Shown here in pieces: positions 459-22,149 of a DNA stretch of 64,000 nucleotides. The notes under the pieces were generated by a model. The model was not told where the DNA came from, searched no databases, and saw only the letters and a list, made by a program, of their open reading frames with translations. Within the stretch, counting starts at the first letter, position 1; each line of letters begins with the position of its first letter. Source of the stretch: Escherichia phage phiEC1; the sequence record KY608965.1; one strand, 5' to 3'. The position numbers and the translations under genes are program-made.

Positions 459-500
459 TTGATAGGTCTATAATAACATATCCTAAAAGCATGTACACTA
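459..500 (-). promoter_or_regulatory. Early promoter cassette (PeSL-like), degenerate copy
   Basis: gataggtctataataacatatcc then gtacac; same layout as the other copies but weaker -35; sits just upstream of the gene starting at 441. Confidence 0.35.
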
Positions 501-549
501 CTTTTTAAAAATATTTTGACCCCCTAAAGGGACCCGAAGGTCCCCACAT

Positions 550-816
550 TTACTTATCGCACTTAGCAACATAATTAGGCATATCACAGAATACGGAGCG
601 TGTAACTACTCGACCCTTTGACCATGCTTCAGTTGCTTGTCCGGCTGTGCTATTAATATAGCTTGATTTAATGTTCTCAATACCCTGAGAATGTGATGCA
701 TTTACCGAACCGTTGGAAGGTGCAGAAGACTGGTTACCACCAGCTCCTGTACCTATGGTAGCACCAACAGAGAATGCCATCATTACTGCGAATAAACCAA
801 TTGCTAATTTTTTCAT
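550..816 (-). CDS. Small secreted protein, unknown function
   Basis: 88 aa ORF; N-terminal signal-peptide-like MKKLAIGLFAVMMAFSVGA; Gly/Ser/Asn-rich mature part. Confidence 0.45.
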   Translation of the reverse strand: MKKLAIGLFAVMMAFSVGATIGTGAGGNQSSAPSNGSVNASHSQGIENIKSSYINSTAGQATEAWSKGRVVTRSVFCDMPNYVAKCDK

Positions 817-843
817 ATTTACCTCAAGTTAAGGGTTATTTAT

Positions 844-1830
844 CTATTTATAGTAAGAATTATGATTTTCGAGATAGACTTGCTCAAGGAAGTCATCCCA
901 GAAACTCATATCTACTTTTTGCTGCATACCGTTCTTAGCGGCTTGTTCTGATGCTTGTTCAACTTGGTCAACAATATCTTCTAGGAATTCTTGTACAGTT
1001 TTAAACGTATGTTTACCAAGCTTAACATCGAGAATAAATGGAGCATCCTGAAGTGGGTAAACCAGGTCGCCGGTTTTGTAAATTTCCAATAATTGAAGTC
1101 CACCACGACATGCATGACTCAATGCTTTCCAGTCAATACCTTCGTTGGCTTCTGCCTTACGAGCACGTTCGCCATAGTTCTCTTCAAGTTTAACCAGGAT
1201 GGCATTGAACTCTTTATTGGTTAACGTGTCTTGGAATTTACGGTCTAACAGACTATAGAATGTTTGCTTACCTGTTTTCTCGTTTTCGGTTTCAACCCAT
1301 GAAGCAAATTCACCTACAGGCAGAACATTCTTCATATGTGATAAACGAATTACTGCACCGTTATCAAAGTATTGTCCCCATTCATTAGAACGTTTAAGGG
1401 CTTGACGAAGAACAGCCAGTCGAGAACCCTTGACACCGTATTTAGAAGCTTGCTTACGGACATACCCTAAATAAGATTTCATGTTAGTGGTATAGAAACG
1501 AGACCTGTTATCTTGAATATACTTCCATACATCAGGCAAATCAGATTTAACTACTAGACTTGGTGGAGTGTGAAGCATATCTAATGCGACGGTTTCACCA
1601 TCCGCAGCTAGTTTAAAGAAATATTTGAGACTATATAACTCATGGTCCACGTCGTCTTTTGTGTTCTTAGAAGATGTGTTATTCGTGTTCTTGCTCATAT
1701 GTTCTTTAACGTTACCGGTCAAAATATCACGAGCATGAGGGACATAAATTTCTTTAAAATCGACGTCAGATTCAGGAGTAGACGTTCCATAAAGGTGGCT
1801 ACCAAAGTAAGCCTTAACAATCGTTTTCAT
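844..1830 (-). CDS. Nucleotidyltransferase-fold protein (Pol-beta superfamily motif)
   Basis: 328 aa; N-terminal G-S x10 D-V-D (FGSHLYGTSTPESDVDF) plus a later acidic VALD; start codon overlaps stop of upstream membrane-protein gene. Confidence 0.5.
   Translation of the reverse strand: MKTIVKAYFGSHLYGTSTPESDVDFKEIYVPHARDILTGNVKEHMSKNTNNTSSKNTKDDVDHELYSLKYFFKLAADGETVALDMLHTPPSLVVKSDLPDVWKYIQDNRSRFYTTNMKSYLGYVRKQASKYGVKGSRLAVLRQALKRSNEWGQYFDNGAVIRLSHMKNVLPVGEFASWVETENEKTGKQTFYSLLDRKFQDTLTNKEFNAILVKLEENYGERARKAEANEGIDWKALSHACRGGLQLLEIYKTGDLVYPLQDAPFILDVKLGKHTFKTVQEFLEDIVDQVEQASEQAAKNGMQQKVDMSFWDDFLEQVYLENHNSYYK
845..852 (-). promoter_or_regulatory. T4-type late promoter motif TATAAATA
   Basis: tatttata on plus = TATAAATA on minus, about 29 nt upstream of the ATG at 816. 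Confidence 0.4.
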
Positions 1831-2303
1831 TATTTAGCCTTATATTCAAGAGTAGGACAGATTTTTTCTTTACGAGCTTTAAGGTATTCACCTATTAATG
1901 ATTTCTTACGTTCAATAGGCTCAAGTCCATTTTTAATTCGTTCTTGGTTTTGTGCAATGAGCTCAATTTCTTTATAATATTTTCTGTCGTTATATTTGTC
2001 TAACAACCAAGACGGACCAATTATCAACCCAACAGAAATAAGAGCCATGACTGCTACAATTAAAATGCCTACGCCAATTGAGGCTGGAACTAATGTCCAT
2101 AGACTGCTAAAAACAAAGAATTTAGTTAAAATTTCATGGCCGATGATTATGACTGCTGCTAAAATCGCAAATCCAATAATTGAAACAGCCAATGCCGGGA
2201 TTAACGTTTTCCAAAAATAAGCACACAACGTTTTCGGACGATTCCATGTACTATTAAACGCGGCATAAATTTTAAAGTGCCAAGAGTTTTCATTGATAAT
2301 CAT
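1830..2303 (-). CDS. Membrane protein (two predicted TM helices), unknown function
   Basis: 157 aa; hydrophobic stretches LIPALAVSIIGFAILAAVIIIG and VPASIGVGILIVAVMALISVGLIIG; basic C-terminal tail. Confidence 0.5.
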   Translation of the reverse strand: MIINENSWHFKIYAAFNSTWNRPKTLCAYFWKTLIPALAVSIIGFAILAAVIIIGHEILTKFFVFSSLWTLVPASIGVGILIVAVMALISVGLIIGPSWLLDKYNDRKYYKEIELIAQNQERIKNGLEPIERKKSLIGEYLKARKEKICPTLEYKAK

Positions 2304-2312
2304 AATAATTCC

Positions 2313-2855
2313 TTATTTCAAAGTTGGGATAATAGAATCGAGATAAGCTTTAAGAGCAACTGCTTCATCTTTGTCTAATGTAACGATATGTTGACGAAGG
2401 TCATCAATTTGGCGAATAACTACAACATCGCCATCTTCATAAGAAGGATTAACGCCTAGGACTGTTGTATAGTCAGGGCGGTCCTGATTTGTAATAAAAG
2501 CATTACGGCATTTAGCCCATTGAAGTTTGGCCTTTTTGGCTGTTTCAGATTCAATGAATTCTTTCACCTTAGTGACGAATGTTTTCCAATTATTAATAGA
2601 AAAACATTCGTCTTCAGTTTCGATATTAACCCCACTATAAAGTCCGTGATAAAAACGAACTTGAAGGTCTTCATTAATGTTAATTACAGATGCATGGCCT
2701 GGTGGATTGAGTTTCAAAATCTTGTCCAGTTCCATAGGAAGAATAGTAGCAGCATCATCTTCTTGTGTCAGAACATACACATAACCACGTTTTTCGATAC
2801 ATAAATCACCAAACAACTCGGTTGTTTCAATTACAGTTTTCATATTATTCACCAA
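2313..2855 (-). CDS. Hypothetical protein
   Basis: 180 aa ORF in tightly packed minus-strand early array. Confidence 0.45.
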   Translation of the reverse strand: MVNNMKTVIETTELFGDLCIEKRGYVYVLTQEDDAATILPMELDKILKLNPPGHASVININEDLQVRFYHGLYSGVNIETEDECFSINNWKTFVTKVKEFIESETAKKAKLQWAKCRNAFITNQDRPDYTTVLGVNPSYEDGDVVVIRQIDDLRQHIVTLDKDEAVALKAYLDSIIPTLK

Positions 2856-3146
2856 TTAAAGTTTCAACAAAATTCACCAAATCATTCAGACAAGCATCAA
2901 CCTGATTTTCATAAAAGTCTTCGTTATCATTTACTGCATGATAAGCTACATCATTCAAATCTGAATCGGCTTCACGTAAGTCACTGATAAGGTCCATCAA
3001 TTTATTAGCTTGTTCACGGGTCATTTTACCATACTCGTTTCAATAAGATTCACTATGCCGTTTACCATGTTATAAGTAAACATCGGATAATTGTATTGTA
3101 CTACAACATAAGCGATAAGCAAAAGTTTCATTTTGTTCTCCGTTCG

Positions 3147-3190
3147 TTTTGATAGGACTACTATAACATAGTCCTACCAAGATGTAAACT
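3147..3190 (-). promoter_or_regulatory. Early promoter cassette (PeSL-like)
   Basis: Inverted repeat gataggactactataacatagtcctac containing a -10-like TATAGT (minus), with GTTTAC -35-like box (gtaaac at 3184-3189 on plus). Confidence 0.5.
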
Positions 3191-3425
3191 ACCGATTGTG
3201 TTTTAAATGTTGATAAAGTTCTTCAACTTGTTTAGGGTCCAAAACAATTAAGTCATTTTCTTGGCGAAGATAAATCCATCCCTTATCCCCAGGGCCATTT
3301 TTACAAAACATCACCGTCGTCATATCATCATCTTCAGCGCTTTCAGGTAAAAGTTCAAGTACACCGTCTTCAGATTTTCCAGTATAATCGTAAAGCATAA
3401 TGTCCTCACATAATCTCGTTAACAT
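3189..3425 (-). CDS. Hypothetical protein
   Basis: 78 aa ORF, acidic. Confidence 0.4.
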   Translation of the reverse strand: MLTRLCEDIMLYDYTGKSEDGVLELLPESAEDDDMTTVMFCKNGPGDKGWIYLRQENDLIVLDPKQVEELYQHLKHNR

Positions 3426-3585
3426 ACATTTGCAATTCGGTGTGGGCGTCGGCCATCTTTTTCATAGCTCTGTTAATGTCGATGTCTCCATCTTCGCAAC
3501 CATGAGCATTTTCCCAATCAGATACCGCATTAGCGTACTCTTCAATCAAAAACATCAACTTAGAAATCTTTTCTTTACGTGTCAT
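3406..3585 (-). CDS. Hypothetical protein (rI.-1 position)
   Basis: Start moved to internal ATG at 3585 (MTRKEKISKL...) with GAGGAG Shine-Dalgarno; the longer ORF-track start would read through the upstream promoter cassette. Confidence 0.4.
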   Translation of the reverse strand: MTRKEKISKLMFLIEEYANAVSDWENAHGCEDGDIDINRAMKKMADAHTELQMYVNEIM

Positions 3586-3604
3586 AACGTTCTCCTCTAG
3601 TAAG

Positions 3605-3641
3605 TAAGGACTACTATAACACAACCTGAGGAAAAGTAAAC
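3605..3641 (-). promoter_or_regulatory. Early promoter cassette (PeSL-like)
   Basis: aaggactactataacacaacc followed by gtaaac at 3636-3641. Confidence 0.45.
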
Positions 3642-3651
3642 TGCTAAATGC

Positions 3652-3680
3652 CAAAAAGCCCCAACCATAAGGAAGGGGCT
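3652..3680 (-). terminator. Rho-independent terminator after rI
   Basis: On minus strand GCCCC-loop-GGGGC hairpin followed by TTTTTGG. Confidence 0.55.
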
Positions 3681-3686
3681 AGTAAA

Positions 3687-3989
3687 TTAGATAGATGTAG
3701 GCTCTAATTTTATTTTCATGAACTCGGCAAATTGTCTGGCAGTTTTTATGCCTTGTTCATGACATTCAAATGCATCATCACAGGGGCTATTTTTGTAATG
3801 CTTTGCCATATACTTATAGAATTTTTCAGAATTCTCGACATTTTGAATTTCAAACAAAGTATATACGTTTTTAATCCCTGATTCCATAAAGTTATCAAAA
3901 TATGGGTCAATATGTGCAGTACCAACGATAGGAGTTGTTGCTGCAAAAAACCCCAGCATCGCCATGACAGCTATCGCTCTTAAGGCCAT
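3687..3989 (-). CDS. rI: Lysis inhibition regulator RI
   Basis: 100 aa with signal-anchor MALRAIAVMAMLGFFA and DPYFDNFMESGI...PCDDAFEC, matching remembered T4 RI; lies next to tk as in T4. Confidence 0.8.
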   Translation of the reverse strand: MALRAIAVMAMLGFFAATTPIVGTAHIDPYFDNFMESGIKNVYTLFEIQNVENSEKFYKYMAKHYKNSPCDDAFECHEQGIKTARQFAEFMKIKLEPTSI

Positions 3990-4001
3990 ATAGGCCTCCT
4001 G

Positions 4002-4214
4002 TTAATTTTGGCCAGTATTTATTTTTCGCCTTTGGACGGCCTTAACATCTGTGAGGTATTTTTCCAGCTTGCGCTTGCGTGTATAATCAGCTTTAGAACC
4101 AGTTTGACGGATATCCTCGTTTAAATGAGAAATAGAATGTCCTAATTCTCTTCGGATTTCATCCAATTGGGTTACAGTAAGATTACGAAGTTGTCTTTCG
4201 TTTAATTGCTGCAT
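4002..4214 (-). CDS. Hypothetical protein (rI.1 position)
   Basis: 70 aa basic ORF between tk and rI. Confidence 0.45.
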
Positions 4215-4237
4215 ATATACCTCTTGGTTAGATATTA

Positions 4238-4245
4238 GTATTTAT
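4238..4245 (-). promoter_or_regulatory. T4-type late promoter motif TATAAATA
   Basis: tatttata on plus, about 24 nt upstream of the ATG at 4214. Confidence 0.4.
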
Positions 4246-4823
4246 AACAACCCTGTCAAATCATTCCAATGCTTCCGGCATAATGACACGTATCTATCGG
4301 TATCACCAATTTCAATTTGACTGCCATCTGTAATTGGAAGTCCATCTTCCGTGACTCTAGCTACCATTGTGGCCTTTTTACCGCAATGACAGACACCTTT
4401 AAGTTCAACAAGCTTATCGGCAATAGCCATTAATGCTTGAGAACCTTCAAATAGATTACCTTTAAAATCTGTTCGTAGTCCATATGCCATTACCGGCACA
4501 TTGTATACGTCAACAATACGACTAAGTTGATACACCTTTTCAGTAGTTAAGAACTGAGCTTCGTCAACAAATACACAGTGAATATCCTTTTGTGCTGCAG
4601 CCCATTTATAGAATTCAAAGATATCCATGTCTTTTGTAATTATATTGGCATCTTGACGAATACCAATACGAGAGACTATTTCACCTTTTGAATCACGAGT
4701 ATCAATAGCCGGTTTAAGAACTAATACACCCATGCCACGTTCTTTATAGTTATGTGCGGCAGTAAGTAATGAAGCAGACTTACCAGCGTTCATAGCGGCA
4801 TAGGTAAAAATTAAACTAGCCAT
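4242..4823 (-). CDS. tk: Thymidine kinase
   Basis: 193 aa; MASLIFTYAAMNAGKSASLL P-loop and C-terminal CHCGKKA...SLCRKHW zinc motif, near-identical to remembered T4 Tk. Confidence 0.95.
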   Translation of the reverse strand: MASLIFTYAAMNAGKSASLLTAAHNYKERGMGVLVLKPAIDTRDSKGEIVSRIGIRQDANIITKDMDIFEFYKWAAAQKDIHCVFVDEAQFLTTEKVYQLSRIVDVYNVPVMAYGLRTDFKGNLFEGSQALMAIADKLVELKGVCHCGKKATMVARVTEDGLPITDGSQIEIGDTDRYVSLCRKHWNDLTGLL

Positions 4824-4831
4824 AAGAGTCC

Positions 4832-5017
4832 TTATTCGGTAATTCGTTCTAGATAATCATCTAATGCCCTTTGAGCATCTTCCAGTTCTTGTGTTGCGAG
4901 CTGTTTTGCCAGTTTAGACGAGAAATACGATGAATGTTCCCATTCATAAGCTTGTTCAGCCAAACGTATTTCATTAGACAAATAAATTATCTCTTCTTTC
5001 TGTTGACGAGTAATCAT
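4832..5017 (-). CDS. Hypothetical protein
   Basis: 61 aa ORF. Confidence 0.35.
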   Translation of the reverse strand: MITRQQKEEIIYLSNEIRLAEQAYEWEHSSYFSSKLAKQLATQELEDAQRALDDYLERITE

Positions 5018-5196
5018 AATGAGTTCACATAATTAATGAGTTCTTGTTCTTTCCTGTCAAATGATTCCAACAATGCTTGATATTCTTCATCTGTTAAAGG
5101 AGCATATTCATCGTACGCATTGGTGGCTGCTTGCTCATCCAATAGGTCATGGATAAGTTCGAACAGTTTAGCTTTCTCTTCTTTAGTCAATTTCAT
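5014..5196 (-). CDS. Hypothetical protein
   Basis: 60 aa ORF, overlapping stop/start with neighbour. Confidence 0.35.
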   Translation of the reverse strand: MKLTKEEKAKLFELIHDLLDEQAATNAYDEYAPLTDEEYQALLESFDRKEQELINYVNSL

Positions 5197-5224
5197 TTAG
5201 CACCTGTAAGAATTTTTGTTTGAC

Positions 5225-5452
5225 TCATAACCATGTCACCTTTAAGCAATATTCTTCTACATGTTGTTTACGACCTTTCTTATCAATAAAGGTATATTCA
5301 ACGAATGTTCCGATGTAGTCTTTATCTACGTCATGTGGACTATTAATTGGACATTTAGTACGACAAATGCGTTCCCATTGACGAATAATTACTGCTTTAT
5401 TTTTAGGATCAAACGGATGTGGGTAATGTACTTTCATAGCAATGGTTCCCAA
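5225..5452 (-). CDS. Hypothetical protein
   Basis: 75 aa ORF. Confidence 0.4.
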   Translation of the reverse strand: MGTIAMKVHYPHPFDPKNKAVIIRQWERICRTKCPINSPHDVDKDYIGTFVEYTFIDKKGRKQHVEEYCLKVTWL

Positions 5453-5931
5453 TCAACAATCACAATTTCTAGTTTAGTGGAATACGTATCTAAAATTTCT
5501 TCGATGACATCCCAGTTTCCACCACCAATACCTGCACCAATTCTTGGCATATAAATTACAGGCTTTGTTATCTTATTCTTTCCGAATTTATTTAATTCTA
5601 TTATACAATTCATTAAAGCAGAGTACTCAAAATTAGGTCCCGGCTCAAACTGTGTATAAAGATTAAAGCAATAAGCTTTATGGGTCTTAAAATATTTTTC
5701 ATAAACCGAATAAGTCCCGAGTTTAGACTCGTCTCCGAATTCGGTTTGAAGTTTATCGGCTTCCAGAATTTTTGGATAAGCCTTTGCTAATTGACCTGCT
5801 ACACCAGCGCCCATTGTATGAAAACAATTACACCCATGAGCAATATTATTACCTTTAGAAAACAGGGCGACAATATCGCCCTTGATATAGTTTTTAATCA
5901 CTTGCTGCAAGTCCTCTAGTATAAGAGTCAA
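5434..5931 (-). CDS. Macro-domain protein (OARD1/TARG1-like ADP-ribose hydrolase family)
   Basis: 165 aa; IVALFSKGNNIAHGCNCFHTMGAGVAGQLAKAYP and later RIGAGIGGG resemble the TARG1-type macro-domain signature. Confidence 0.5.
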   Translation of the reverse strand: MTLILEDLQQVIKNYIKGDIVALFSKGNNIAHGCNCFHTMGAGVAGQLAKAYPKILEADKLQTEFGDESKLGTYSVYEKYFKTHKAYCFNLYTQFEPGPNFEYSALMNCIIELNKFGKNKITKPVIYMPRIGAGIGGGNWDVIEEILDTYSTKLEIVIVDWEPLL

Positions 5932-6241
5932 CTAGACGGTCCACCATAGAATTGCATGCTGCCTTATCTTTAGGTTCCGCCACCGAGCATTCTAATATTT
6001 GCCATTTTTTATAGTATCTTTTAATTAAAGTAGACGCCTTGAACCTACTAGACGCCCCATCTTTTTCTCCGTCTTTATACGCGTATAACAATTTTTGTGA
6101 AAAATCTACTTTACACTCTTGACTTTTACCACAGTAATCAGACGCCGTTCTGTTTGTATACTCCGTTACATCAGTATATGTAGTATTAGCAAGAGCGTTA
6201 AATGAAACCAAGCCAACTATTAAAGCCAACATTTTGGTCAT
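5894..6241 (-). CDS. Secreted protein, unknown function
   Basis: 115 aa; signal-peptide-like MTKMLALIVGLVSFNALA; four Cys. Confidence 0.45.
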   Translation of the reverse strand: MTKMLALIVGLVSFNALANTTYTDVTEYTNRTASDYCGKSQECKVDFSQKLLYAYKDGEKDGASSRFKASTLIKRYYKKWQILECSVAEPKDKAACNSMVDRLVDSYTRGLAASD

Positions 6242-6780: not shown

Positions 6781-6788
6781 GTTTACCT

Positions 6789-7247: not shown

Positions 7248-7265
7248 TTTGATTTCTCCTCTAGC

Positions 7266-7304
7266 TGACAGGTCTATAGTAACACAACTAGAGGAGAAGT
7301 AAAC
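7266..7304 (-). promoter_or_regulatory. Early promoter cassette (PeSL-like)
   Basis: ggtctatagtaacacaac with gtaaac at 7299-7304; immediately upstream of the regB-like start. Confidence 0.45.
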
Positions 7305-7308: not shown

Positions 7309-7524
7309 TTATTGATAAAATGGAGTTAAAGCCCAAGATTCTTTAGATACCATATCGGCGAAACGCCTCATCTCTTCGATTTGGCGACGACGCTGGTCAG
7401 CATAGTCTTCTTCGCCTTCTTCCTTACAATCTTCAAGGTCTTCTTCAAGATACTTTAAGTATTCACTACAAATTTTGTTGACCTTTTCTTGGAAGTCCAA
7501 TAACCCAGTAATAGTAGAAGCCAT
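7309..7524 (-). CDS. Hypothetical protein
   Basis: 71 aa acidic ORF. Confidence 0.4.
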   Translation of the reverse strand: MASTITGLLDFQEKVNKICSEYLKYLEEDLEDCKEEGEEDYADQRRRQIEEMRRFADMVSKESWALTPFYQ

Positions 7525-9217: not shown

Positions 9218-9394
9218 TTAGTTTCTCTTAAGGTTGGGCCATTCCATGGCGCATGAATTGTCCGTTTCTGTATTTACCCATTACCGCACTTGGGCTCGAC
9301 CTTATTACAGGTTGGCGGGAATCCCTCATAGAATAATGAGGTCCAGGTTGTTCCCATTTTATTTAAATGTAAATAGGCCTATACTTAGGCCTTA

Positions 9395-9973
9395 TTAATT
9401 ACCACGGGCTGCATTAGCAACGGCGTAAGCGTACTGAACATTAGCGTCTTTAAACGTACCTTTAGAGGTATCTATTTCTGCCTTAAAGCCGCCTTTAGCC
9501 ATAACATCAGCAAATTCTTTACGGAAAGCCATTGCGTCAAGACCTTTCCATGATGATTTATGCTTGGCAAATTCAAGACCTGCGAAGTTGACAGCTTTAG
9601 CCAATTTATTATCAATGACCCATTTACCTGCTTTAGGCACAAACTTCGGGCCTTTTTGTTTAGAGAACAGTTTTAAATTCCAGCGACGAAGGTCACTGTC
9701 GGCTTTAACAAAAGCTGCGTCTAAGTTACTAGCAACAACATCTTCAATATGAGCAAATTTAAGACCATCAACTTCAATATTTAGATCGTTACGCCAGCGA
9801 AGTCCTTCCCAAGCGAAGGCTTTAAAGTCGGAAGCCTTTGTAGCTAAGTACCGTTCAATAGGAGCAGTTTTAGGGTCAAAGCCGTTTCCGCCACGATAAT
9901 TCCACTCGTCCTTATTAATGCCTTGAGCTTTTCCTGCAAAGGCCTCGGCGATAAATTCTTTATATGTTTTCAT
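9395..9973 (-). CDS. ipIII: Internal protein III-like capsid-targeted protein
   Basis: 192 aa; N-terminal capsid targeting sequence MKTYKEFIAEA; size and position fit T4 IPIII. Confidence 0.65.
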   Translation of the reverse strand: MKTYKEFIAEAFAGKAQGINKDEWNYRGGNGFDPKTAPIERYLATKASDFKAFAWEGLRWRNDLNIEVDGLKFAHIEDVVASNLDAAFVKADSDLRRWNLKLFSKQKGPKFVPKAGKWVIDNKLAKAVNFAGLEFAKHKSSWKGLDAMAFRKEFADVMAKGGFKAEIDTSKGTFKDANVQYAYAVANAARGN

Positions 9974-9999
9974 TTTTGTTCCTATTCTTTTAATTTATG

Positions 10000-10314
10000 T
10001 TATTCTTTAGGGAAGTTTTTAGAGTATGCGTCATAAAGTTTATTACCGATGCGACGGAAGACTTTAGCTGCAAAACGGTTTTCAGGGTTTTTAATCATGA
10101 TTTGCATCATGTAAGTTCCTGCATCCGAAAGAGCTTCTTCATAGTACCCATTAATTTCTTTAAGAGTCCTACGTTTACCACCAGGACCATCAACAGTAAT
10201 TTTCCATTTACCTGTAGAAGTGCGGCTCGGTGGCTCAACTTGTTCAATCCAAATATAACCACCTTCAACGCGTTGGTTGGCGGATTCTGCAATAAATTCT
10301 TTATACGTTTTCAT
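10000..10314 (-). CDS. ipII: Internal protein II-like capsid-targeted protein
   Basis: 104 aa; N-terminal MKTYKEFIAES leader. Confidence 0.55.
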   Translation of the reverse strand: MKTYKEFIAESANQRVEGGYIWIEQVEPPSRTSTGKWKITVDGPGGKRRTLKEINGYYEEALSDAGTYMMQIMIKNPENRFAAKVFRRIGNKLYDAYSKNFPKE

Positions 10315-10334
10315 TTTTGTTTCCTTGTTTGTTT

Positions 10335-10374
10335 TGATAGAGTAATTATACCATATTAATACTTAAGCGTAAAC
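10335..10374 (-). promoter_or_regulatory. Early promoter cassette (PeSL-like), degenerate
   Basis: gatagagtaattataccatatt with gtaaac at 10369-10374, upstream of the ipII-like start. Confidence 0.4.
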
Positions 10375-10377
10375 AAT

Positions 10378-10494
10378 TTAAGCTTTACCGCCAGAAATAA
10401 TTCCGAAGTTGTTAAAATCGTATCCAATATCGTCAACATCTACTTTAGGACCTTTGGCATCTGCTTCAATGATAAATTCTTGATACATTTTCAT
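10378..10494 (-). CDS. Small capsid-targeted-like protein (38 aa)
   Basis: Manual translation MKMYQEFIIEADAKGPKVDVDDIGYDFNNFGIISGGKA; CTS-like leader; AAGGA Shine-Dalgarno; below the 60 aa cutoff of the ORF track. Confidence 0.4.
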   Translation of the reverse strand: MKMYQEFIIEADAKGPKVDVDDIGYDFNNFGIISGGKA

Positions 10495-10914: not shown

Positions 10915-10930
10915 AATTTCCTCCAAGTAG

Positions 10931-10971
10931 TTGATAGATGTATAGTATCAAAACCCTTGGAGGAAGTAAAC
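10931..10971 (-). promoter_or_regulatory. Early promoter cassette (PeSL-like)
   Basis: gatagatgtatagtatcaaaac with gtaaac at 10966-10971, upstream of denV. Confidence 0.45.
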
Positions 10972-13939: not shown

Positions 13940-13959
13940 AATATTCTCCTCATGTTTTA

Positions 13960-13997
13960 ATAGGACTACTATAACATAGTCCTATAATTGGGTAAAC
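13960..13997 (-). promoter_or_regulatory. Early promoter cassette (PeSL-like)
   Basis: ataggactactataacatagtcctat with gtaaac at 13992-13997. Confidence 0.5.
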
Positions 13998-15243: not shown

Positions 15244-15250
15244 TTAATTT

Positions 15251-15290
15251 GATAGGACTACTATAACATAGCCCTATCTTGTTGTAAACT
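15251..15290 (-). promoter_or_regulatory. Early promoter cassette (PeSL-like)
   Basis: gataggactactataacatagccctatc with gtaaac at 15285-15290. Confidence 0.5.
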
Positions 15291-15782: not shown

Positions 15783-16088
15783 TTAGCACAACGCAGAAGA
15801 CGAAACCCAAGCACCTTCAGTAATAACGTAACCATTACCTTCACGCTTAACATCGCCACCATTATTTTCAATTTCATTTTTCATCCACTGAGATACGATT
15901 TCACCCTTAGGATAATAAGTACGACCGCTACCATAATCACCTACAGAAAATGATACGGCATATTGGTCTGCGATCTTTGTTGCTTCTTCTTCGATACGTT
16001 CAGCTTGATTTAGAAGTTTATAAATTGCATCTGAAGCGGATTTGGCATCATTAAACTCTGGTACTTTAATTTCAATAATCTTACTCAT
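15783..16088 (-). CDS. Small protein, member of tandem WVSSS..C-tail family
   Basis: 101 aa; C-terminus GAWVSSSALC. Confidence 0.45.
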   Translation of the reverse strand: MSKIIEIKVPEFNDAKSASDAIYKLLNQAERIEEEATKIADQYAVSFSVGDYGSGRTYYPKGEIVSQWMKNEIENNGGDVKREGNGYVITEGAWVSSSALC

Positions 16089-16444
16089 TTTCTACATTCC
16101 TTAATAAAGTTTTCGATTGTTTCATTTTCACGTCTAGCTAGGAGTTCATTATAACTAATCATTTGAGAAGCGTAAACCTTTTTATTTTTCTTGTTATGGT
16201 TTATAAAATCGTAGTAAAAATAGACTACAGTACAAAAGGATGCTATTGATGCAAAGGCTTGGGTATACCGTAAGTCCTGCCATTGGTCTGTGAATCCACC
16301 AGTGTTACCTATAAATCCTAACACAACGCCGTCAATAAGAAATCCAACTAATCCAAAGGCAAATCCCATGCCGGCGCTCATGATAAAAATTAAAATATTC
16401 TCACCAAGAGAAGGCCATACGGTTAAGAGTTGAGGCTTTTGCAT
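16085..16444 (-). CDS. Small membrane protein with FIKECR C-terminal tail
   Basis: 119 aa; hydrophobic N-terminal half; C-terminus ENFIKECRK. Confidence 0.45.
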   Translation of the reverse strand: MQKPQLLTVWPSLGENILIFIMSAGMGFAFGLVGFLIDGVVLGFIGNTGGFTDQWQDLRYTQAFASIASFCTVVYFYYDFINHNKKNKKVYASQMISYNELLARRENETIENFIKECRK

Positions 16445-16848
16445 CTTATTTCCTTAACGAATTCCATAGCTTCTTCATATTCATACTTTTTAACAGCTTC
16501 ATCATACTGAGCTTGGGCTTTTGCGCACTGAACTTTCCACTCGCGAACTCGAGCTCTGTGATGACGGCCTTGGTGCCAATATCCTGCCCAATTAATAGGC
16601 ATTAATAAAAACGGTACAATAAGTGGTGCGACGAACATTAATGAAAACGCTGCATCAGACGATATAACTTTATTGGAATCTAAAATAGCTCCTATAATCA
16701 TAAAGATTAAAAATGCTAAAGCTAAAATAGGGCCAAATAGTACTTCGTTTGGGATTAATTTACGTTTGTATTCGTATGCCCAGGGCTTAATTGGCATGTA
16801 CAGGGTTGGCTTTGACATATTCTCTACATTCCATAATAAATTGCTCAA
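16423..16848 (-). CDS. Small membrane protein with related C-terminal tail
   Basis: 141 aa; two hydrophobic segments; C-terminus EFVKEIRCKSLNS. Confidence 0.45.
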   Translation of the reverse strand: MSNLLWNVENMSKPTLYMPIKPWAYEYKRKLIPNEVLFGPILALAFLIFMIIGAILDSNKVISSDAAFSLMFVAPLIVPFLLMPINWAGYWHQGRHHRARVREWKVQCAKAQAQYDEAVKKYEYEEAMEFVKEIRCKSLNS

Positions 16849-17410
16849 GGATTAAATTGTTAGTGAAATTAGGACTAACAACCATAGTTTCATAAAGCGC
16901 ATCAATAGCACTTAAAGCATCAACTCTTTTAAGCAAAGGCTCGCCTTCATACATAGTTTCAGAATCGACGATTAACGTAAAGTAATATTTTTTATTATCG
17001 ACTAGAACTTCAGTATCGATATAAAACATATTAGACCTCAGAAGCTTATCTCTAAAACCATAATAATCTTCAGAGCGTTCGCTGATATATTCCCATTCAG
17101 TGTTTAAACAACAAACAGACCATGTAGGAGCAACAAAATCGGTGAATCTAATATCATGGTCTGCAACTAGTTTAGCAATAGCTCCGATATCATGAATCAT
17201 AATACCTGGGGCTAATAAAGATTTTCTGCTATGGCCAGCCGTTTTCTCAGTGGTCTCATAAGAAGCTGACCAGTACCATTTACGTCCAGTTGCAACATAT
17301 CGTAATGAATCAACTAAAGACGTAGGTGGATTTACCTTATTTCGGAACTCTTCGAACATTGAGTCAATATCATTATTTTGGTTTCGCATGTTAACTCCTT
17401 TATTATCCAA
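16787..17410 (-). CDS. Hypothetical protein
   Basis: 207 aa; contains QFIMECREY near C-terminus. Confidence 0.45.
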   Translation of the reverse strand: MDNKGVNMRNQNNDIDSMFEEFRNKVNPPTSLVDSLRYVATGRKWYWSASYETTEKTAGHSRKSLLAPGIMIHDIGAIAKLVADHDIRFTDFVAPTWSVCCLNTEWEYISERSEDYYGFRDKLLRSNMFYIDTEVLVDNKKYYFTLIVDSETMYEGEPLLKRVDALSAIDALYETMVVSPNFTNNLILEQFIMECREYVKANPVHAN

Positions 17411-17438
17411 AAGGAGGACAAAAGTCCTCCGTATTATT

Positions 17439-18047
17439 TTATTTCAAAGAGTTAATATATTCTTGTACATCAGCAGAAGTGGTTTCGACACCAGCTGGAG
17501 TGCCATTGAACGTTTCAACACGAGTCAGAGTGTCTTCGATATCAACCTTAGTCAGTGCAGCGATTTCAATTACATCATCGGCCGTAGAGATACCAAGGGC
17601 ATTAGCTGCTCGAGTTTCACGAATGTATTCGAGTTTGATTGCCAGATTCTGACGAGCATCGTCAAGTTCAACAACCTTACGAGCAATTTCAATTCGCATA
17701 GCGGCATACCCGTCAGCTTTTGTATTAAGTTGTTCGGCCGTTCGACGATACAGAAGACCAAGCTTAGCATGCATGGTAACATCTTGTCCTTCAGCCAGGA
17801 GCTTACGAATTTCACGTTCCTTAGAAGCGGCTTGCTTGTTCTTTTCATTAACAAGTTCGCGAATACGTTTTTCTTCATTAATAGATTTAACAGAAGCCGT
17901 TTTTAGTTCTTTGATTTGGGTAATCAACTTATCTGCAGCTGCGTTATACTGTTCTTCGACAGTCAGATTTTTAGCCATAGCAGTACTCAGTTTAGTGCGG
18001 ATGAATTCAACAAGTTTCTTCAGTGTGTTCATATTATTACCTTTCAA
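17439..18047 (-). CDS. Coiled-coil protein, possibly PspA/IM30-like
   Basis: 202 aa; heptad-rich charged sequence of PspA-like length; no diagnostic motif. Confidence 0.4.
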
Positions 18048-18102
18048 TTGGTGGTTTATTATCCAATGAGAGCATTATACTCTGCTCTCAAGAGTTTGTA
18101 AA

Positions 18103-18330
18103 TTATTTTTTAATCAAATTGACATAAAACTCGGCGTCTTCCGGGTGCATGCCTTCACAGTATTCTTCAACCATGAACTTCTTAACGGCTTCATAAGGAC
18201 CACTCAGATTAAGCTCAGTTGTCCAGAACTTGGAATCTTGGACTGAATCGATACGAACTTCAGGGTGACGGTTGCGAATAACTTCTTCGGTGTATTCATA
18301 ATCAACAACATCAATACTAACTGTAGCCAT
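18103..18330 (-). CDS. Hypothetical protein
   Basis: 75 aa ORF. Confidence 0.4.
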   Translation of the reverse strand: MATVSIDVVDYEYTEEVIRNRHPEVRIDSVQDSKFWTTELNLSGPYEAVKKFMVEEYCEGMHPEDAEFYVNLIKK

Positions 18331-18349
18331 TTTGTTTCTCCTCTTGATT

Positions 18350-18389
18350 TGATGTGATTACTATAACATAAACTTACTTAGATGTAAAT
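18350..18389 (-). promoter_or_regulatory. Early promoter cassette (PeSL-like), degenerate
   Basis: gatgtgattactataacataaac with gtaaat at 18384-18389. Confidence 0.4.
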
Positions 18390-18542
18390 TATTTCAACGT
18401 CACCTTTAGCGGCTTTATAACCTTCAGCCCAAGATACAACAGAGTTTTTATCTGAGGATTCAAATTCAGGCATTGGACTTTCACCAATATTCACACAATA
18501 TGTTTCTTCATTTTCATCGAACCAAATAATTAAAGTAGTCAT
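18378..18542 (-). CDS. Small hypothetical protein (54 aa)
   Basis: Manual translation MTTLIIWFDENEETYCVNIGE...; leader and first codons identical to the ORF at 55176. Confidence 0.35.
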   Translation of the reverse strand: MTTLIIWFDENEETYCVNIGESPMPEFESSDKNSVVSWAEGYKAAKGDVEIIYI

Positions 18543-18554
18543 TTTGTTTACTCC

Positions 18555-18600
18555 TCTGTAGTTGATAAGTTTATAGTATCACCGTCCTTGGTGCTTGTAC
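18555..18600 (-). promoter_or_regulatory. Early promoter/leader cassette, duplicated at 55195-55236
   Basis: gtttactcctctgtagttgataagtttatagtatcac nearly identical to 55183-55222. Confidence 0.45.
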
Positions 18601-18610
18601 ATCATTATTT

Positions 18611-18943
18611 TTAATTTTTCCAACTTAACAACTTGTAGTGTCCTTCATTAACACGTGGTTTATCCCAAGAAATACTAATATATGATTCACTGTCAATAGA
18701 AGTCGCCGGGTTTTTCTCTACCGTAAGACCTTCACTTTCCAGCCATTCAATAGTATTTGCGCATAAATCAGAAGAACACCTCATTGGAAACCGGCAAGAT
18801 TTTTCACCTTTAGCTGCAGTGTTATACATCTTTTCTAAAATACGCTTTTGCACGTTTTTAAAAATAGTTTCAGCAGATTCTTCAGATTTTTTATTCAGTT
18901 CGGTATAAAGACTCATAACATTCTTCTCATTAATAGTGCTCAT
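18611..18943 (-). CDS. Hypothetical protein
   Basis: 110 aa ORF. Confidence 0.4.
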   Translation of the reverse strand: MSTINEKNVMSLYTELNKKSEESAETIFKNVQKRILEKMYNTAAKGEKSCRFPMRCSSDLCANTIEWLESEGLTVEKNPATSIDSESYISISWDKPRVNEGHYKLLSWKN

Positions 18944-18973
18944 AATATCTCAATCATAAGCCCGTGTAAACAA

Positions 18974-19249
18974 TTATTTCATATTATTGAAATAATCTTC
19001 CGCATCAAAATCGTTATCATGGTAAACTTTGGTAGACGATTTGGCGTAGCCTTCAGCAGAGAACATATTAATCACAACTTTAATTGTATACCACTGTCCA
19101 TCTTCATTACCCATTACTGCATAGGTTTCATACACCGGGTGTTCAGGTCCAATAACTTTAATATCATTCACTGTACGTCCGAAATCTTCTGGAACGCATT
19201 TCATAAAGAAGTTGAACAGTTCACCGTAATTATCCATTTCATTCTCCAA
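18974..19249 (-). CDS. Hypothetical protein
   Basis: 91 aa ORF. Confidence 0.4.
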   Translation of the reverse strand: MENEMDNYGELFNFFMKCVPEDFGRTVNDIKVIGPEHPVYETYAVMGNEDGQWYTIKVVINMFSAEGYAKSSTKVYHDNDFDAEDYFNNMK

Positions 19250-19270
19250 GTTTTTTCTGTATCGGTAGTT

Positions 19271-19309
19271 GATAGTTGTATAGTACCACGGAAGAACAGG
19301 GATGTAAAC
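19271..19309 (-). promoter_or_regulatory. Early promoter cassette (PeSL-like)
   Basis: gatagttgtatagtaccac with gtaaac at 19304-19309. Confidence 0.45.
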
Positions 19310-19443
19310 AGTTTTGTGAAAAAATTTTTAAAAAGTTTTGTGGAATTCTAGGGCAGGGAGAGGAAATTAAAAAGTAGGATAATATATTATAAAGGGTATA
19401 AACTAAATGATGTGCCTAGAGAGGCCCTGAAAGGCCTAGATAC

Positions 19444-19472
19444 CAAAAAGCCCCAACCTTTCGGAAGGGGCT
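19444..19472 (-). terminator. Rho-independent terminator downstream of tRNA-like region
   Basis: Minus strand AGCCCCTTCCGAAAGGTTGGGGC hairpin followed by TTTTTGG. Confidence 0.55.
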
Positions 19473-19511
19473 ATACCTTGTCGGGGTTCCACCTGCAAGG
19501 CAAGTGTTTGT

Positions 19512-19603
19512 ACGAAACGCCGGGATTCGAACCCGGTTATTGAGTAGTTGACGCTACTCAATATTTTTAAAAGGCCATATCTCGACCATATCCGAACATT
19601 CCG
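19512..19603 (-). ncRNA. tRNA-like element (canonical T-arm, non-canonical body)
   Basis: Minus strand has CCGGG-TTCGAAT-CCCGG T-arm (19520-19536) and a possible 7-bp acceptor pairing CGGAATG/CGTTTCG, but no convincing anticodon stem; T4 encodes tRNA-like stable RNAs in its tRNA cluster. Confidence 0.3.
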
Positions 19604-19771
19604 TCAAAAACGCTACTCGGCTTACGGCAAAGATATTTCCTCGAATCGATAATTCGGTGCGCCGTTTCTGCTGTGATGTAAGGGGATATTAACGAATCAT
19701 AAAGATTTATTAAGACCAGTCCTTAATCAGGGAACATCAGTCCGACGACTTGCCGGTAGCGACCCGGCTTC

Positions 19772-20116
19772 TTATTTTGACATATCATCAATTTGTTCTC
19801 TACGTCTACGCCATAGATTAATTACTTCATCAACACATTCGGCGTTTGATATATGACGGCAATAATATAATGATTCGCGTTTCTGGAACCGATGTTGCAA
19901 TGGGATTTCGTTTAAAAGGTCTTTACGGTCAAAGTATTCAAAACTAGTTAACCCAGAACGGTTTTTAAGGAACTTCCAATGACCAAATTCATTTTGAACA
20001 TAGACGTAATCGGCATGCTGATACAGCGAATTAATTAACCTATTGGAAATAACTGTTTCACGTTCGTTAAAATAAAACGTTAAATCATGAACTACCAGAT
20101 AAACATTGCCTTTCAT
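19772..20116 (-). CDS. Hypothetical protein
   Basis: Start moved to ATG 20116 (MKGNVYLVVHDL...) with GAGGA Shine-Dalgarno, because the longer ORF would overlap tRNA-Arg. Confidence 0.4.
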   Translation of the reverse strand: MKGNVYLVVHDLTFYFNERETVISNRLINSLYQHADYVYVQNEFGHWKFLKNRSGLTSFEYFDRKDLLNEIPLQHRFQKRESLYYCRHISNAECVDEVINLWRRRREQIDDMSK

Positions 20117-20134
20117 ATTTTCCTCACTTAAAGT

Positions 20135-20211
<77 letters not shown>

Positions 20212-20217
20212 AATATA

Positions 20218-20291
20218 TGACCCAGACCAGATTCGAACTGGTAACCTTTCCCTTATGAGGGGACTGCTGCTAACCATTGAGCTACAGGGCC
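20218..20291 (-). tRNA. tRNA with CAU anticodon (Met or Ile-type)
   Basis: Minus strand: anticodon loop CTCATAA, T-arm ACCAG-TTCGAAT-CTGGT, acceptor GGCCCTG/CTGGGTC with one mismatch; 6 nt from tRNA-Arg. Confidence 0.7.
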
Positions 20292-20370
20292 TAAATAACT
20301 TTCTATTATGAAAGGCACTTTAGAGCACCTTTGGTAATAGAGGGTATGAATTAATAATAACACATAATTC

Positions 20371-20886
20371 TTAAAGCAAATCAACCATTTTAACGGTCGG
20401 CAAAACGATTTCTTCTTCAATATAAGCAAATTCGACACGTTCAACTACACGCAAGAAATCGTAATCATAGTATTCAGAAGCATAGCCAAGAATATCAATA
20501 AGACCTTGAGATATCTCATCGCCTTTCACAAAGAACAGGTCGAATACACGTGATTCATCTTCTTCAGATTTATTACCGAGGTCGACTTCGATACCAAAGA
20601 CCTTTTTAATGAATTCCGGATAAAGCTGGTCTGAGAACAGTCCTTCAACCAAGTATTCATAGATTAAAAGCGAGCAATCACTGAATGGTGTATTACCACA
20701 ATAACGTTCGGCTTTGGTGCTAGAATGACGGCTCTTAAATTTCTTCAAGAGATATTTAAACTGTTGGAGCTCATGCTCTTCCACTTCAAACAATGTTTTG
20801 GTTTTATAGTTGTCACCATCATTTTCATAGGTAGTGACATCAATTACGTAACCCTTAGGAATTGTACTGCCTAAACAAATATTCAT
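20371..20886 (-). CDS. Hypothetical protein
   Basis: 171 aa acidic ORF. Confidence 0.45.
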   Translation of the reverse strand: MNICLGSTIPKGYVIDVTTYENDGDNYKTKTLFEVEEHELQQFKYLLKKFKSRHSSTKAERYCGNTPFSDCSLLIYEYLVEGLFSDQLYPEFIKKVFGIEVDLGNKSEEDESRVFDLFFVKGDEISQGLIDILGYASEYYDYDFLRVVERVEFAYIEEEIVLPTVKMVDLL

Positions 20887-20890
20887 TTAC

Positions 20891-21181
20891 TCACCGTACC
20901 ATATTAATGTAATTATATTCAATGCAACGTAATTTCAAAGGATTCTTGAAAATATCATATTCAAGAGGACCTTTTTCTGTTTCAATAAAGAAATCAAAGT
21001 TCACACTATTAAATTTGCGGTCTTCCCAAAGTAATTTAACCTGTGAAGATGAACGGTCGATGTAAACCTTTTCAACTTCAAAGTGGGTCAAAATACCATA
21101 GTAATCGACTAGTGCTTTAGCTGCAGCTCGGTCGCTTTCATATCCATTCTCAACGGATTTTACCTTAGCATAAAGAATCAT
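20891..21181 (-). CDS. Hypothetical protein
   Basis: 96 aa ORF. Confidence 0.4.
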   Translation of the reverse strand: MILYAKVKSVENGYESDRAAAKALVDYYGILTHFEVEKVYIDRSSSQVKLLWEDRKFNSVNFDFFIETEKGPLEYDIFKNPLKLRCIEYNYINMVR

Positions 21182-21558
21182 GAATGTTCCACCATTTCAA
21201 AGGTATGAGCATCAACAATATGATACCAGTCAAAATTTTCTTCTGCGTTTTTATAAATTTCGCGAAGAGCCTCAACAGTTTTTCCTGTAGCAACAAGGTC
21301 GTCAATACCACCAAGAGGATAACAGTCATAACCAGCAAACAGAAGGAAATTAATAGTTTCTGTAGGTTCTGGATACAGAACTCCGTTATCGTCTACCACT
21401 TCAAAGAAAGTGTAAGAAGGAGTACAAGTTTTAATCCAGGCCCATGCTTGAGCTGCTGAATCAAACGGATTACGGAATAAACGACAATCCGGGTCTTTAG
21501 AAGGATTTGCTTCAAAATCAGCATATACATGATATTTCATTTTACTCACCTTTTGCAA
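21178..21558 (-). CDS. Hypothetical protein
   Basis: 126 aa ORF, overlapping start/stop with neighbours. Confidence 0.45.
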   Translation of the reverse strand: MQKVSKMKYHVYADFEANPSKDPDCRLFRNPFDSAAQAWAWIKTCTPSYTFFEVVDDNGVLYPEPTETINFLLFAGYDCYPLGGIDDLVATGKTVEALREIYKNAEENFDWYHIVDAHTFEMVEHS

Positions 21559-21748
21559 TTTTATCCATAACGATAGCGATTAAGCCGATTAGAAATGCTA
21601 CTACCAATGAGATAGAATTTTCTGTTGTTGTCAGTAGTCCACAAATGAATCCTACAAACATCGAAAAACTAAAAGCCATTGAAGCAATTACTACAGCAAC
21701 ATTACGAATCAGTTCAGCGCGTTTCATTTTATTTCTCCATTTACTCAT
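21542..21748 (-). CDS. Small membrane protein
   Basis: 68 aa; two hydrophobic segments. Confidence 0.4.
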   Translation of the reverse strand: MSKWRNKMKRAELIRNVAVVIASMAFSFSMFVGFICGLLTTTENSISLVVAFLIGLIAIVMDKIAKGE

Positions 21749-21755
21749 TTGATTT

Positions 21756-21794
21756 GATAGGACTACTATAACATAGTCCTATCAGCATGTAAAC
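21756..21794 (-). promoter_or_regulatory. Early promoter cassette (PeSL-like)
   Basis: gataggactactataacatagtcctatc with gtaaac at 21789-21794. Confidence 0.5.
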
Positions 21795-21797
21795 TAC

Positions 21798-22085
21798 TTA
21801 TAGAAGAGTTTTTGCAATAATTTTAAGCTGAGCTACAGAAATATGCTTAGCTTTAAACAGTGCAGTCTCTTCAGCCGGAGAGATAACAATAGTAGCGCCA
21901 TCTTTCTTAGCAGACCATCCATCCCCTAAGTAAACAGTACCTTTTACTTCTTCACCATCAACCAGACTAATCATTGGTTTACCCTCACGTCCTTTATTTG
22001 TTTTAATAACTTCAGAAGTAAGGGATGCTTCGGTCAGAGTAGAAACGTTAGCAACAGGTGATATAAATTCTTTATAGGTTTTCAT
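21798..22085 (-). CDS. ipI: Internal protein I-like capsid-targeted protein
   Basis: 95 aa; MKTYKEFI leader; adjacent to 57B as T4 ipI. Confidence 0.65.
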   Translation of the reverse strand: MKTYKEFISPVANVSTLTEASLTSEVIKTNKGREGKPMISLVDGEEVKGTVYLGDGWSAKKDGATIVISPAEETALFKAKHISVAQLKIIAKTLL

Positions 22086-22110
22086 TTTATTTCCTTGAGG
22101 CTGTTTATTT

Positions 22111-22149
22111 GATAGGATGATAGTAACACACCATCATCCTTATGTAAAC
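22111..22149 (-). promoter_or_regulatory. Early promoter cassette (PeSL-like)
   Basis: gataggatgatagtaacacaccatcatcc inverted repeat with gtaaac at 22144-22149, upstream of ipI. Confidence 0.45.

Follow-up and report, generated by a model that had tools for sequence, protein, structure and literature searches.

The early region of Escherichia phage phiEC1 raises the question of why an element of about 40 bp recurs upstream of one minus-strand gene after another, and whether it acts as a promoter, as a site of gene exchange, as a source of RNA structure, or as all of these. We analyzed the element in a stretch of 64,000 nucleotides (nt) of this genome (KY608965.1), referred to below as the window, which belongs to an RB69-like (Mosigvirus) T-even phage whose top database matches are Mosigvirus. 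The variable early region of T-even phages encodes anti-defense genes and host-range genes such as those of the internal proteins, and knowing the sequences that mediate exchange helps explain phage adaptation and aids engineering.

We consider it likely, with a probability of roughly 0.7, that the elements are at once sigma-70 early promoters of the T4 type, recombination substrates, and carriers of hairpins that would form only on read-through RNA. The original prediction had described them as promoter early stem-loop (PeSL) cassettes; as an observation this is largely right, and as an interpretation it is reasonable but overstated. What the present analysis adds is evidence suggesting that selection acts on the stems as structures and that their layout restricts them to read-through RNA.

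Predicted early promoters of the T4 type

The window holds 16 copies of the element, all on the minus strand and each 5′ of a minus-strand gene; 15 of them lie within the first 22 kb and one, 55195, in the 42 kb of late genes. The element was confirmed on the minus strand, 5′ of a minus-strand ATG, at all 14 sites named by the original prediction, whose count of about fourteen overlooked two more: 18942–18971, recovered by a profile search, and 18074–18103, recovered by a sigma-70 scan. Read from 5′ to 3′, a copy consists of an A-rich stretch, GTTTAC, an 18-nt spacer that closes with TGT or TGA, TAYWRT, 4 nt, CTATCAA, a leader of 10–35 nt with a Shine–Dalgarno (SD) sequence of the GGAG or AAGGA type (e.g., GAGGAG), and the ATG.

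The GTTTAC −35 box ascribed to every copy is exact in 12 of the 15 copies of the profile, the exceptions being GTGTAC (459), ATTTAC (18350), and ATGTAC (18555). The spacer, given as 17–18 nt, is 18 nt long when counted from GTTTAC, which equals 17 nt after TTTACa, and 17 nt long in 3605 and 7266. The −10 hexamers TATAGT, TACTAT, TATAAT, and TATTAT (TAYWRT) mostly follow TGT or TGA, and CTATCAA, located 4 nt past the −10, is exact in eight copies and has one mismatch in three. With the −10 as anchor, the alignment of the copies is gap-free apart from one spacer base in 3605 and 7266. The 20 nt 5′ of the −35 are 76% AT compared with 62% window-wide, with an A-run of at least three in 14 of 15 copies.

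The combination GTTTAC-N16–19-TATAGT was found five times against 0.06 expected, whereas generic sigma-70-like sites are not enriched (68 found, 65.7 expected). A profile built from the copies and run over both strands of the 64 kb returned only 15 hits (E ≤ 6e-5), the next best match having E = 0.9, indicating that the copies are much more alike than generic sigma-70 promoters. Outside one subfamily with 80–91% identity, they share 36–77% over 44 nt, little more than the promoter consensus itself. In IMG/VR, the exact 24-nt core occurs in only six stretches, from close relatives and one T4-like contig.

We infer from sequence and from orthology to T4 early promoters that the elements are the sigma-70-dependent, T4-type early promoters of this phage. 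The copies sit in sense orientation 5′ of the orthologues of nrdC.10, mobD.2, regB, the internal-protein (IP) genes, denV, e.6, e.8, trna.4, and ipI. In T4, whose RefSeq record contains no promoter features and whose promoters were therefore located with the window-derived profile, matches were found at orthologous sites, 5′ of nrdC.10, mobD.2, regB, denV, ipII, ipIII, e.8, trna.4, and ipI.

T4 early promoters consist of UP, −35, TGn, and −10 parts plus extra consensus regions (Hinton 2010, PMC2988021). For RB69, 57 early promoters were predicted (Nolan et al. 2006, PMC1524935), with GTTTAC at −36 to −31, an A-rich segment at −40 to −44, and a preference for C at −3 to −1, the last of which matches CCTATCAA in the window. 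The copies share with T4-type early promoters the GTTTAC −35, the A-rich UP-like region, the TGn plus −10, the C-rich −3 to −1, and the position 5′ of early-gene orthologues and small novel open reading frames (ORFs); compared with RB69, another isolate of the same genus, nothing essential differs. The promoter class was predicted for RB69 as early as 2006, and the element is not of a new kind. It should be noted that stems around the −10 go unmentioned in the RB69 paper (0 occurrences of "stem-loop"; PMC1524935).

Hairpins predicted on read-through RNA

For each copy, the RNA from the −35 to the ATG was folded and compared with shuffles. Strong hairpins (z from −3.5 to −4.8) were obtained for 3147, 7266, 10931, 15251, 21756, and 22111 and moderate ones for 13960 (z = −2.4) and 18942 (z = −2.0), while the same RNA segment of 459, 3605, 10335, 18350, 18555, 19271, and 55195 gave no significant fold. 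Overall, a stem-loop lies in or beside the promoter in about 9–11 of the 16 copies. The statement that each −10 is embedded in an inverted repeat holds for about seven copies, in which a tight hairpin encloses the −10; two further copies pair strongly and two weakly with the SD, and five (459, 10335, 18350, 18555, and 55195) have no stem. The repeat ATAGGACTA/TAGTCCTAT is found only in 3147, 13960, 15251, and 21756.

The stems fall into two classes. In the tight class, the spacer supplies the 5′ arm, the TGn falls in the loop together with most of the −10, and the 3′ arm starts where the −10 ends and reaches about +3; this class comprises the four copies with ATAGGACTA/TAGTCCTAT, 22111 (AGGATGATG/TATCATCCT), 18074 (TGAGAGC/GCTCTCA), and, weakly, 18942. 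In the anti-SD class, the spacer right after the −35 is complementary to the SD region 25–35 nt downstream, as in 7266 (regB) and 10931 (denV) and, weakly, in 3605 and 19271. Over all copies, spacer-to-downstream complementarity reaches z = 11 against shuffled spacers, and in about two thirds of them promoter DNA 5′ of the predicted start is complementary to sequence at or after the start. Because the 5′ arm extends no further downstream than the −10 in either class, such a hairpin should form only on transcripts arriving from a promoter farther upstream.

In T4, 7 of the 12 promoters of the corresponding region fold with z < −2, and their stem sequences are different. The stem of mobD.2 is GTTGACAAGATT/AATCTTGTCAAC in T4 and TTGGTAGGACTAT/GTAGTCCTATCAA in the window; that of ipI, TGATGAGGTA/TACCTCATCA in T4 and AGGATGATG/TATCATCCT in the window; that of trna.4, ATAGGGT/ACCCTAT and TGATAGGACTAT/GTAGTCCTATCA, respectively; that of regB, TTTTCCTCTTGAC/GTTAAGAGGAGAA and TTCTCCTCTAGTTG/CAGCTAGAGGAGAA; and that of denV, TCTCCTGTAG/CTACAGGAGA and TTCCTCCAAG/CTTGGAGGAA.

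Covariation was analyzed in regB and denV loci of T4-like phages from IMG/VR. A MAFFT alignment of these promoters placed the arms in lineage-dependent registers, unfit for column-wise pair counts, and segments anchored on CTCC and GGAG were used instead. The upstream segment pairs better with its own leader than with the leaders of other phages for both regB (25.4 versus 17.3) and denV (21.3 versus 14.1), the observed value being reached by 0 of 2000 permutations. Among 22 distinct regB/denV sequences, anchored on the invariant CTCC and GGAG without optimization and with flanks counted, 84.5% of the cells are paired, compared with 67.8 ± 2.0 in shuffles (0 of 500) and 43–52% in slid registers. 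As the sequences are related, neither the permutation count nor the shuffle count is to be read as a probability. Both partners vary in eight of the 12 pairs, a single position showing as many as four pair types, and each gene has at least five different stems. For the tight class, a search for trna.4 homologues gave close relatives only, and the case therefore rests on the comparison of T4 with the window and on the different stems at different promoters. Since the T4 orthologues keep stems with other sequences and the regB/denV pairing covaries, we suggest that the structure of the stem is selected and its sequence is not.

These data bear on whether the −10 palindrome is the operator of a dimeric repressor that shuts off the early promoters. 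A perfect 9-bp inverted repeat does span the −10 in four copies, and the mechanism of early-promoter shut-off has been described as not fully understood (PMC3014915). However, the stem sequences vary from promoter to promoter and between T4 and the window while pairing is kept, including through G.U pairs, and a third of the promoters have no repeat, which makes an operator hardly credible; a single sequence-specific operator protein is ruled out by the at least five different stems per gene (regB, denV) with pairing retained.

The substitutions also bear on whether RNA or DNA folds. At non-Watson–Crick stem positions, G.T exceeds A.C by 14 to 5 (p = 0.06), a weak hint in favor of folding of the sense-strand RNA. 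That the inverted repeats act as DNA cruciforms or single-strand hairpins, attracting structure-specific nucleases and so creating recombination hot spots, appears very unlikely: breakpoints do occur in and beside the repeats, but this excess of G.U-compatible substitutions speaks against it, the loops of 20–30 nt in the anti-SD class would make poor cruciforms, and the hairpin-less copies 459, 18350, and 18555 are broken as often as the others.

A PeSL is defined as an AT-rich region, a sigma-70-like early promoter, a variably placed stem-loop, an SD, and an ATG, located in hyperplastic regions beside indels (PMC2839356, PMC4122927), and has been described for RB49/phi1, T4/PST, and KVP40/nt-1 (Arbiol et al. 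2010, PMC2839356; Comeau et al. 2014, PMC4122927). The match proposed by the original prediction is good for most copies in composition, in location in the hyperplastic early region, and in association with indel and replacement junctions between close relatives; it fails in that about a third of the copies are stemless and the stems are not terminator-like. In the commonest RB49 subclasses, the stem overlaps the −10 or lies in the stretch separating it from the −35, a placement also seen in the window. In contrast, the terminators tested in RB49 are G/C-rich (polyG/polyC), whereas the stems of the window are AU-rich and without a U-tract, and two well-supported window stems pair with the ribosome-binding site (RBS). 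Stems upstream of the promoter, as in PST/T4, occur in the window only at 459 and 3605. No paper linking PeSL to RB69 or Mosigvirus was found in the indexed literature, journals beyond that index not being covered. The kind of element, an early promoter doubling as a shuffling point, is known; the novelty lies in the genus, for which this had not been made explicit.

The published PeSL function (PMC2839356) leads to a further reading, namely that the stems terminate or attenuate upstream transcription, as was proposed and tested for one RB49 PeSL. The stems are located at the end of the upstream gene, and 459 and 3605 have a separate terminator-like hairpin just upstream. The tight stems, however, are AU-rich and are followed by A-rich and not U-rich sequence, without a U-tract, and none was called by the terminator scan, so they are not canonical terminators; the stems of regB and denV pair specifically with the SD and covary, neither of which a terminator needs. 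We therefore regard termination as an improbable main role.

The anti-SD stems point to a different consequence. In regB and denV, the RBS of read-through RNA would be paired at −19 to −22 kcal/mol, and because the hairpin buries the SD, translation of both genes should depend on the proximal promoter. The pairing is backed by covariation, and from it we infer the functional consequence; regB and denV would be two clean cases of a promoter masking, with its own spacer, the RBS on read-through RNA. RBS-sequestering hairpins with an internal promoter are known from T4 e, soc, 49, and I-TevI. What regB (7266), denV (10931), and their homologues have in common with such hairpins is an SD predicted to be paired in read-through RNA and a proximal promoter that starts inside the hairpin, leaving its own transcript without the 5′ arm. 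In the classical cases, a late or middle promoter delays translation, whereas in the window the promoter is early and the 5′ arm is its own −35/−10 spacer. Aeh1 mobE is a further example, as cited in PMC3014915. An SD inside the hairpin together with compensatory change was found for 7266, 10931, and their homologues and not for the tight class, whose stems, at the head of the 5′ untranslated region, may act by attenuating read-through RNA, by processing it, or by protecting its 3′ end.

In seven more distant T4-like denV loci, the arm that pairs with the SD and AUG lies outside the spacer and overlaps the −10 and the next 6 nt (e.g., TATGATGTCTTC with GAGGACATCATG). This arm, too, lies 5′ of the predicted start, so that the same design is achieved in a second way.

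RNA structure protects GGAG sites from RegB (PMC3014915), and for this reason read-through RNA may also be shielded from RegB. A wider proposal, which we find attractive but put forward only tentatively, is that the stems are a general filter for transcript origin in T-even early promoters and not mainly terminators or recombination sites. Read-through from a neighboring cassette would then arrive with the leader or RBS of the next gene folded, untranslatable and with its GGAG sites protected, and only the cassette's own transcript would be open. If true, each shuffled cassette would be a self-contained unit of translation, and this would account for the joint movement of promoter and hairpin and for the covariation of the pairing across genera.

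Breakpoints and the proposed shuffling of cassettes

Positions 1–25000 of the window were compared with seven relatives by chained blastn alignments, which gave 31 distinct indel or replacement events with 41 distinct breakpoint positions. Eleven of the 41 fall inside the 100-bp element spans, which occupy 5.8% of the 24 kb (about 4.6-fold enrichment, p = 1.6e-5), and at least one relative shows a break at 10 of the 13 gene junctions that have an element, against 14 of the 43 that lack one (p = 0.006). At least one end lies in an element span in 14 of the 31 events, or in 19 with a tolerance of 40 bp. The elements had been proposed to delimit most of the variable cassettes; many junctions do lie at elements, but "most" is too strong.

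Individual junctions are informative about the mechanism. At 13985/13992, four relatives carry two cassettes flanking an extra 66-aa ORF where the window has one, with the junction at the −35; the 13960 cassette is chimeric, its −35 side coming from the upstream copy and its spacer and −10 from the downstream copy. Copy 459 (446–478) is chimeric as well, two cassettes flanking an extra 72-aa ORF in phage SF. At 7308, three relatives have an unrelated ORF in place of 7309–7524, starting 4 nt 5′ of the −35 hexamer (7299–7304). At two insertions, the high-scoring segment pairs (HSPs) overlap by 29–33 nt. Among the relatives, one cassette may precede different genes, and one gene may stand behind differing upstream halves or entirely different cassettes; at 18942, two relatives have another cassette before the same gene. 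The copies 3147, 13960, 15251, and 21756 are 80–91% identical to one another, whereas 3147 and 21756 share only 59–70% with their T4 orthologues, indicating that dispersed copies have been homogenized. A 34-nt core of this subfamily, including its G.U variant, precedes an unrelated small ORF in Serratia phage 4S.

According to the joint reading, each promoter heads a small early gene or gene cassette, and since similar sequence is repeated in direct orientation, the elements would serve as substrates of homologous recombination: between direct repeats of 40–100 bp, intervening genes would be deleted, inserted, or replaced, and some copies homogenized. At the level of sequence, the chimeric junctions and the concerted evolution support recombination as in the PeSL model. 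Promoter-cassette shuffling is thereby extended to the RB69 group, whose phages are widely used in therapy collections. A mobile element resembling a miniature inverted-repeat transposable element was considered and rejected, the copies being always in sense orientation and upstream of a gene, with varying stems and no target-site duplications at the junctions read base by base.

Several points weigh against the joint reading. The start sites on which the direction of the hairpin argument depends were placed from the −10 (about 7 nt downstream, at the A of CTATCAA); a hairpin is absent from five copies; the tight hairpins leave the SD uncovered; the covariation sequences share ancestry, and the G.U excess is slight. 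In 12–17 of the 31 events, neither end is at or near an element, these events lying at tight gene junctions in tk.2–tk.4 and around the tRNAs (e.g., 4835/5016, 5200/5444, 12235/12455, and 20138–20893). When only spacers of at least 40 nt are compared, the difference between those with an element (10 of 13 broken) and those without (2 of 5) is not significant, and with just five such spacers lacking an element, the enrichment is inseparable from the survival of indels only between genes.

These last points favor the simplest alternative, that the elements are only promoters and that breakpoints coincide with them because indels are tolerated only between genes, nearly all real spacers being promoter-bearing. 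It is also consistent with this that T4 deletes between homologies of 2–10 bp, including in this same region (PMC9391042). Junctions within shared sequence that leave chimeric cassettes, the HSP overlaps described above, paralogues 18 kb apart that are more alike than orthologues, and spacer variants that move between sites in relatives are all against it, and we consider it unlikely.

In Serratia phage 4S, which belongs to another genus, the core GATAGGGCTATGTTATAGTAGTCCTATC (within 640–800) equals that of copy 15251 and lies behind GTTTAC; the unrelated small ORF that it precedes is next to tk. A 594-nt insertion in PTE-Eco05 (within 5060–5760; window 3652–3680) contains a 185-aa ORF with its own SD and without an early promoter, and is flanked by a duplicated GC-rich terminator hairpin and not by a promoter; the sequence repeated at a junction can thus be a terminator as well as a promoter.

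Individual copies and their surroundings

Coordinates and folds of the individual copies and of the two hairpins adjoining them are listed in Table 1.

Table 1. Predicted early promoter copies and adjacent terminator-like hairpins in the phiEC1 window.
Feature	Position	Strand	Gene or location	Sequence and fold
Promoter 459	459..499	−	5′ of nrdC.10 orthologue	GTGTAC-N18-TATTAT-AGAC-CTATCAA; no significant hairpin
Terminator-like GC hairpin	518..534	−	Directly upstream of promoter 459	AAAATATTTT; short A run, T-rich sequence
Promoter 3147	3149..3189	−	mobD.2 orthologue	Tight 13-bp hairpin around −10; −18.7 kcal/mol, z = −4.65
Promoter 3605	3602..3641	−		17-nt spacer; TTTTCCTC pairs weakly with SD GAGGAGAA, z = −0.3
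GC-rich hairpin with T-run	3653..3680	−	Just 5′ of promoter 3605	AGCCCCTTCC..GGTTGGGGCTTTTT
Promoter 7266	7254..7304	−	regB	Spacer TTCTCCTCTAGTTG pairs with SD-containing CAGCTAGAGGAGAA; −21.6 kcal/mol, z = −4.8
Promoter 10335	10334..10374	−	IP gene (MKTYKEFI capsid-targeting leader); adjoins highly variable IP locus	No hairpin
Promoter 10931	10918..10971	−	denV	Spacer TTCCTCCAAG pairs with SD-containing CTTGGAGGAA; −19.2 kcal/mol, z = −4.8
Promoter 13960	13957..13997	−	Single chimeric cassette	Tight hairpin, z = −2.4
Promoter 15251	15249..15289	−		Tight hairpin with one G.U pair; −16 kcal/mol, z = −3.6
Promoter 18074	18063..18103	−	e.6 orthologue	ATTTAC-N18-TATAAT; stem TGAGAGC/GCTCTCA around −10
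Promoter 18350	18349..18389	−	Breakpoint at 18353 in two relatives	ATTTAC; no hairpin
Promoter 18555	18562..18602	−		ATGTAC; no hairpin
Promoter 18942	18931..18971	−	e.8-like gene	Moderate hairpin, z = −2.0
Promoter 19271	19269..19309	−	95% identical to T4 orthologue	No significant fold
Promoter 21756	21754..21794	−	trna.4 orthologue; breakpoint at −35 (21794)	Tight 12-bp hairpin; −18.1 kcal/mol, z = −4.5
Promoter 22111	22109..22149	−	ipI-type IP gene	Hairpin AGGATGATG/TATCATCCT; −16.8 kcal/mol, z = −3.5
Promoter 55195	55196..55236	−	Isolated; heads 89-aa ORF inserted between gp23 and gp24	

About 160 phage records, mostly Mosigvirus, align with the first 24 kb at 95–99% identity, the best record having 95–96% identity over 96–97% of the query. 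The gene order, projected from annotated relatives, is on the minus strand nrdC.10, mobD.1, rI, tk, vs, regB, and vs.3–vs.8, then the IP genes, denV, e, nudE, and e.2–e.6, then two tRNAs, trna.2–4, and ipI, and finally 57B, 57A, gene 1, and gene 3. The stretch from nrdC.10 to gene 3 is the classical early, hyperplastic region of T-even genomes, and late structural genes occupy the window from about 24 kb onward.

Two candidate copies were rejected: 58050, which gave no profile hit, and 16148, which lies inside an ORF and has a profile E of 0.9. The latter site (16148–16177) is a good match to GTTTAC-N18-TATAAT within an e.3-like ORF, and a 250-nt deletion in PTE-Eco05 begins exactly at its −35 (16177). 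Minus-strand terminator-like hairpins at 5864–5882, 9375–9392, and 17413–17430 fill three of the five sizeable spacers without a profile-matched promoter, so that most spacers of the region contain either a promoter cassette or a terminator; the spacer 18032–18103 contains the 16th promoter.

The copies 18555 and 55195, 36 kb apart, share TACTATA[A/G]ACTTATCAACTACAGAGGAGTAAACAAAATGACTA from the −10 to the first codons, identical save for one position. The leaders of both contain GTAAAC, the complement of GTTTAC, and RNAfold pairs the two motifs in 55195.

The IP locus (9279–10376) is the most variable stretch, with six replacement events among the seven relatives. Homology resumes there inside the MKTYKEFI leader (10285) and not in the promoter, and likewise in ipI (22063). 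At 10444–10451, six of the seven relatives have about 136 nt more, belonging to a small ORF that separates denV from the IP gene; this seems to be a deletion private to the window that left a 38-aa remnant ORF (10378–10494).

An Rfam scan of positions 1–24000 found two tRNAs and no other match. The tRNA genes, at 20135–20291 on the minus strand, are tRNA-Arg(tct) and tRNA-Met(cat), the second of which one relative annotates as a tRNA-Ile reading ATA. The 534 nt at 19238–19771, upstream of the tRNAs, contain no convincing ORF and no Rfam match, and the relatives' insertions here measure 613–1234 nt. The T4 stable RNAs rnaC and rnaD lie at about the equivalent position, and at 19538–19563 the window carries a long plus-strand hairpin with a T-run.

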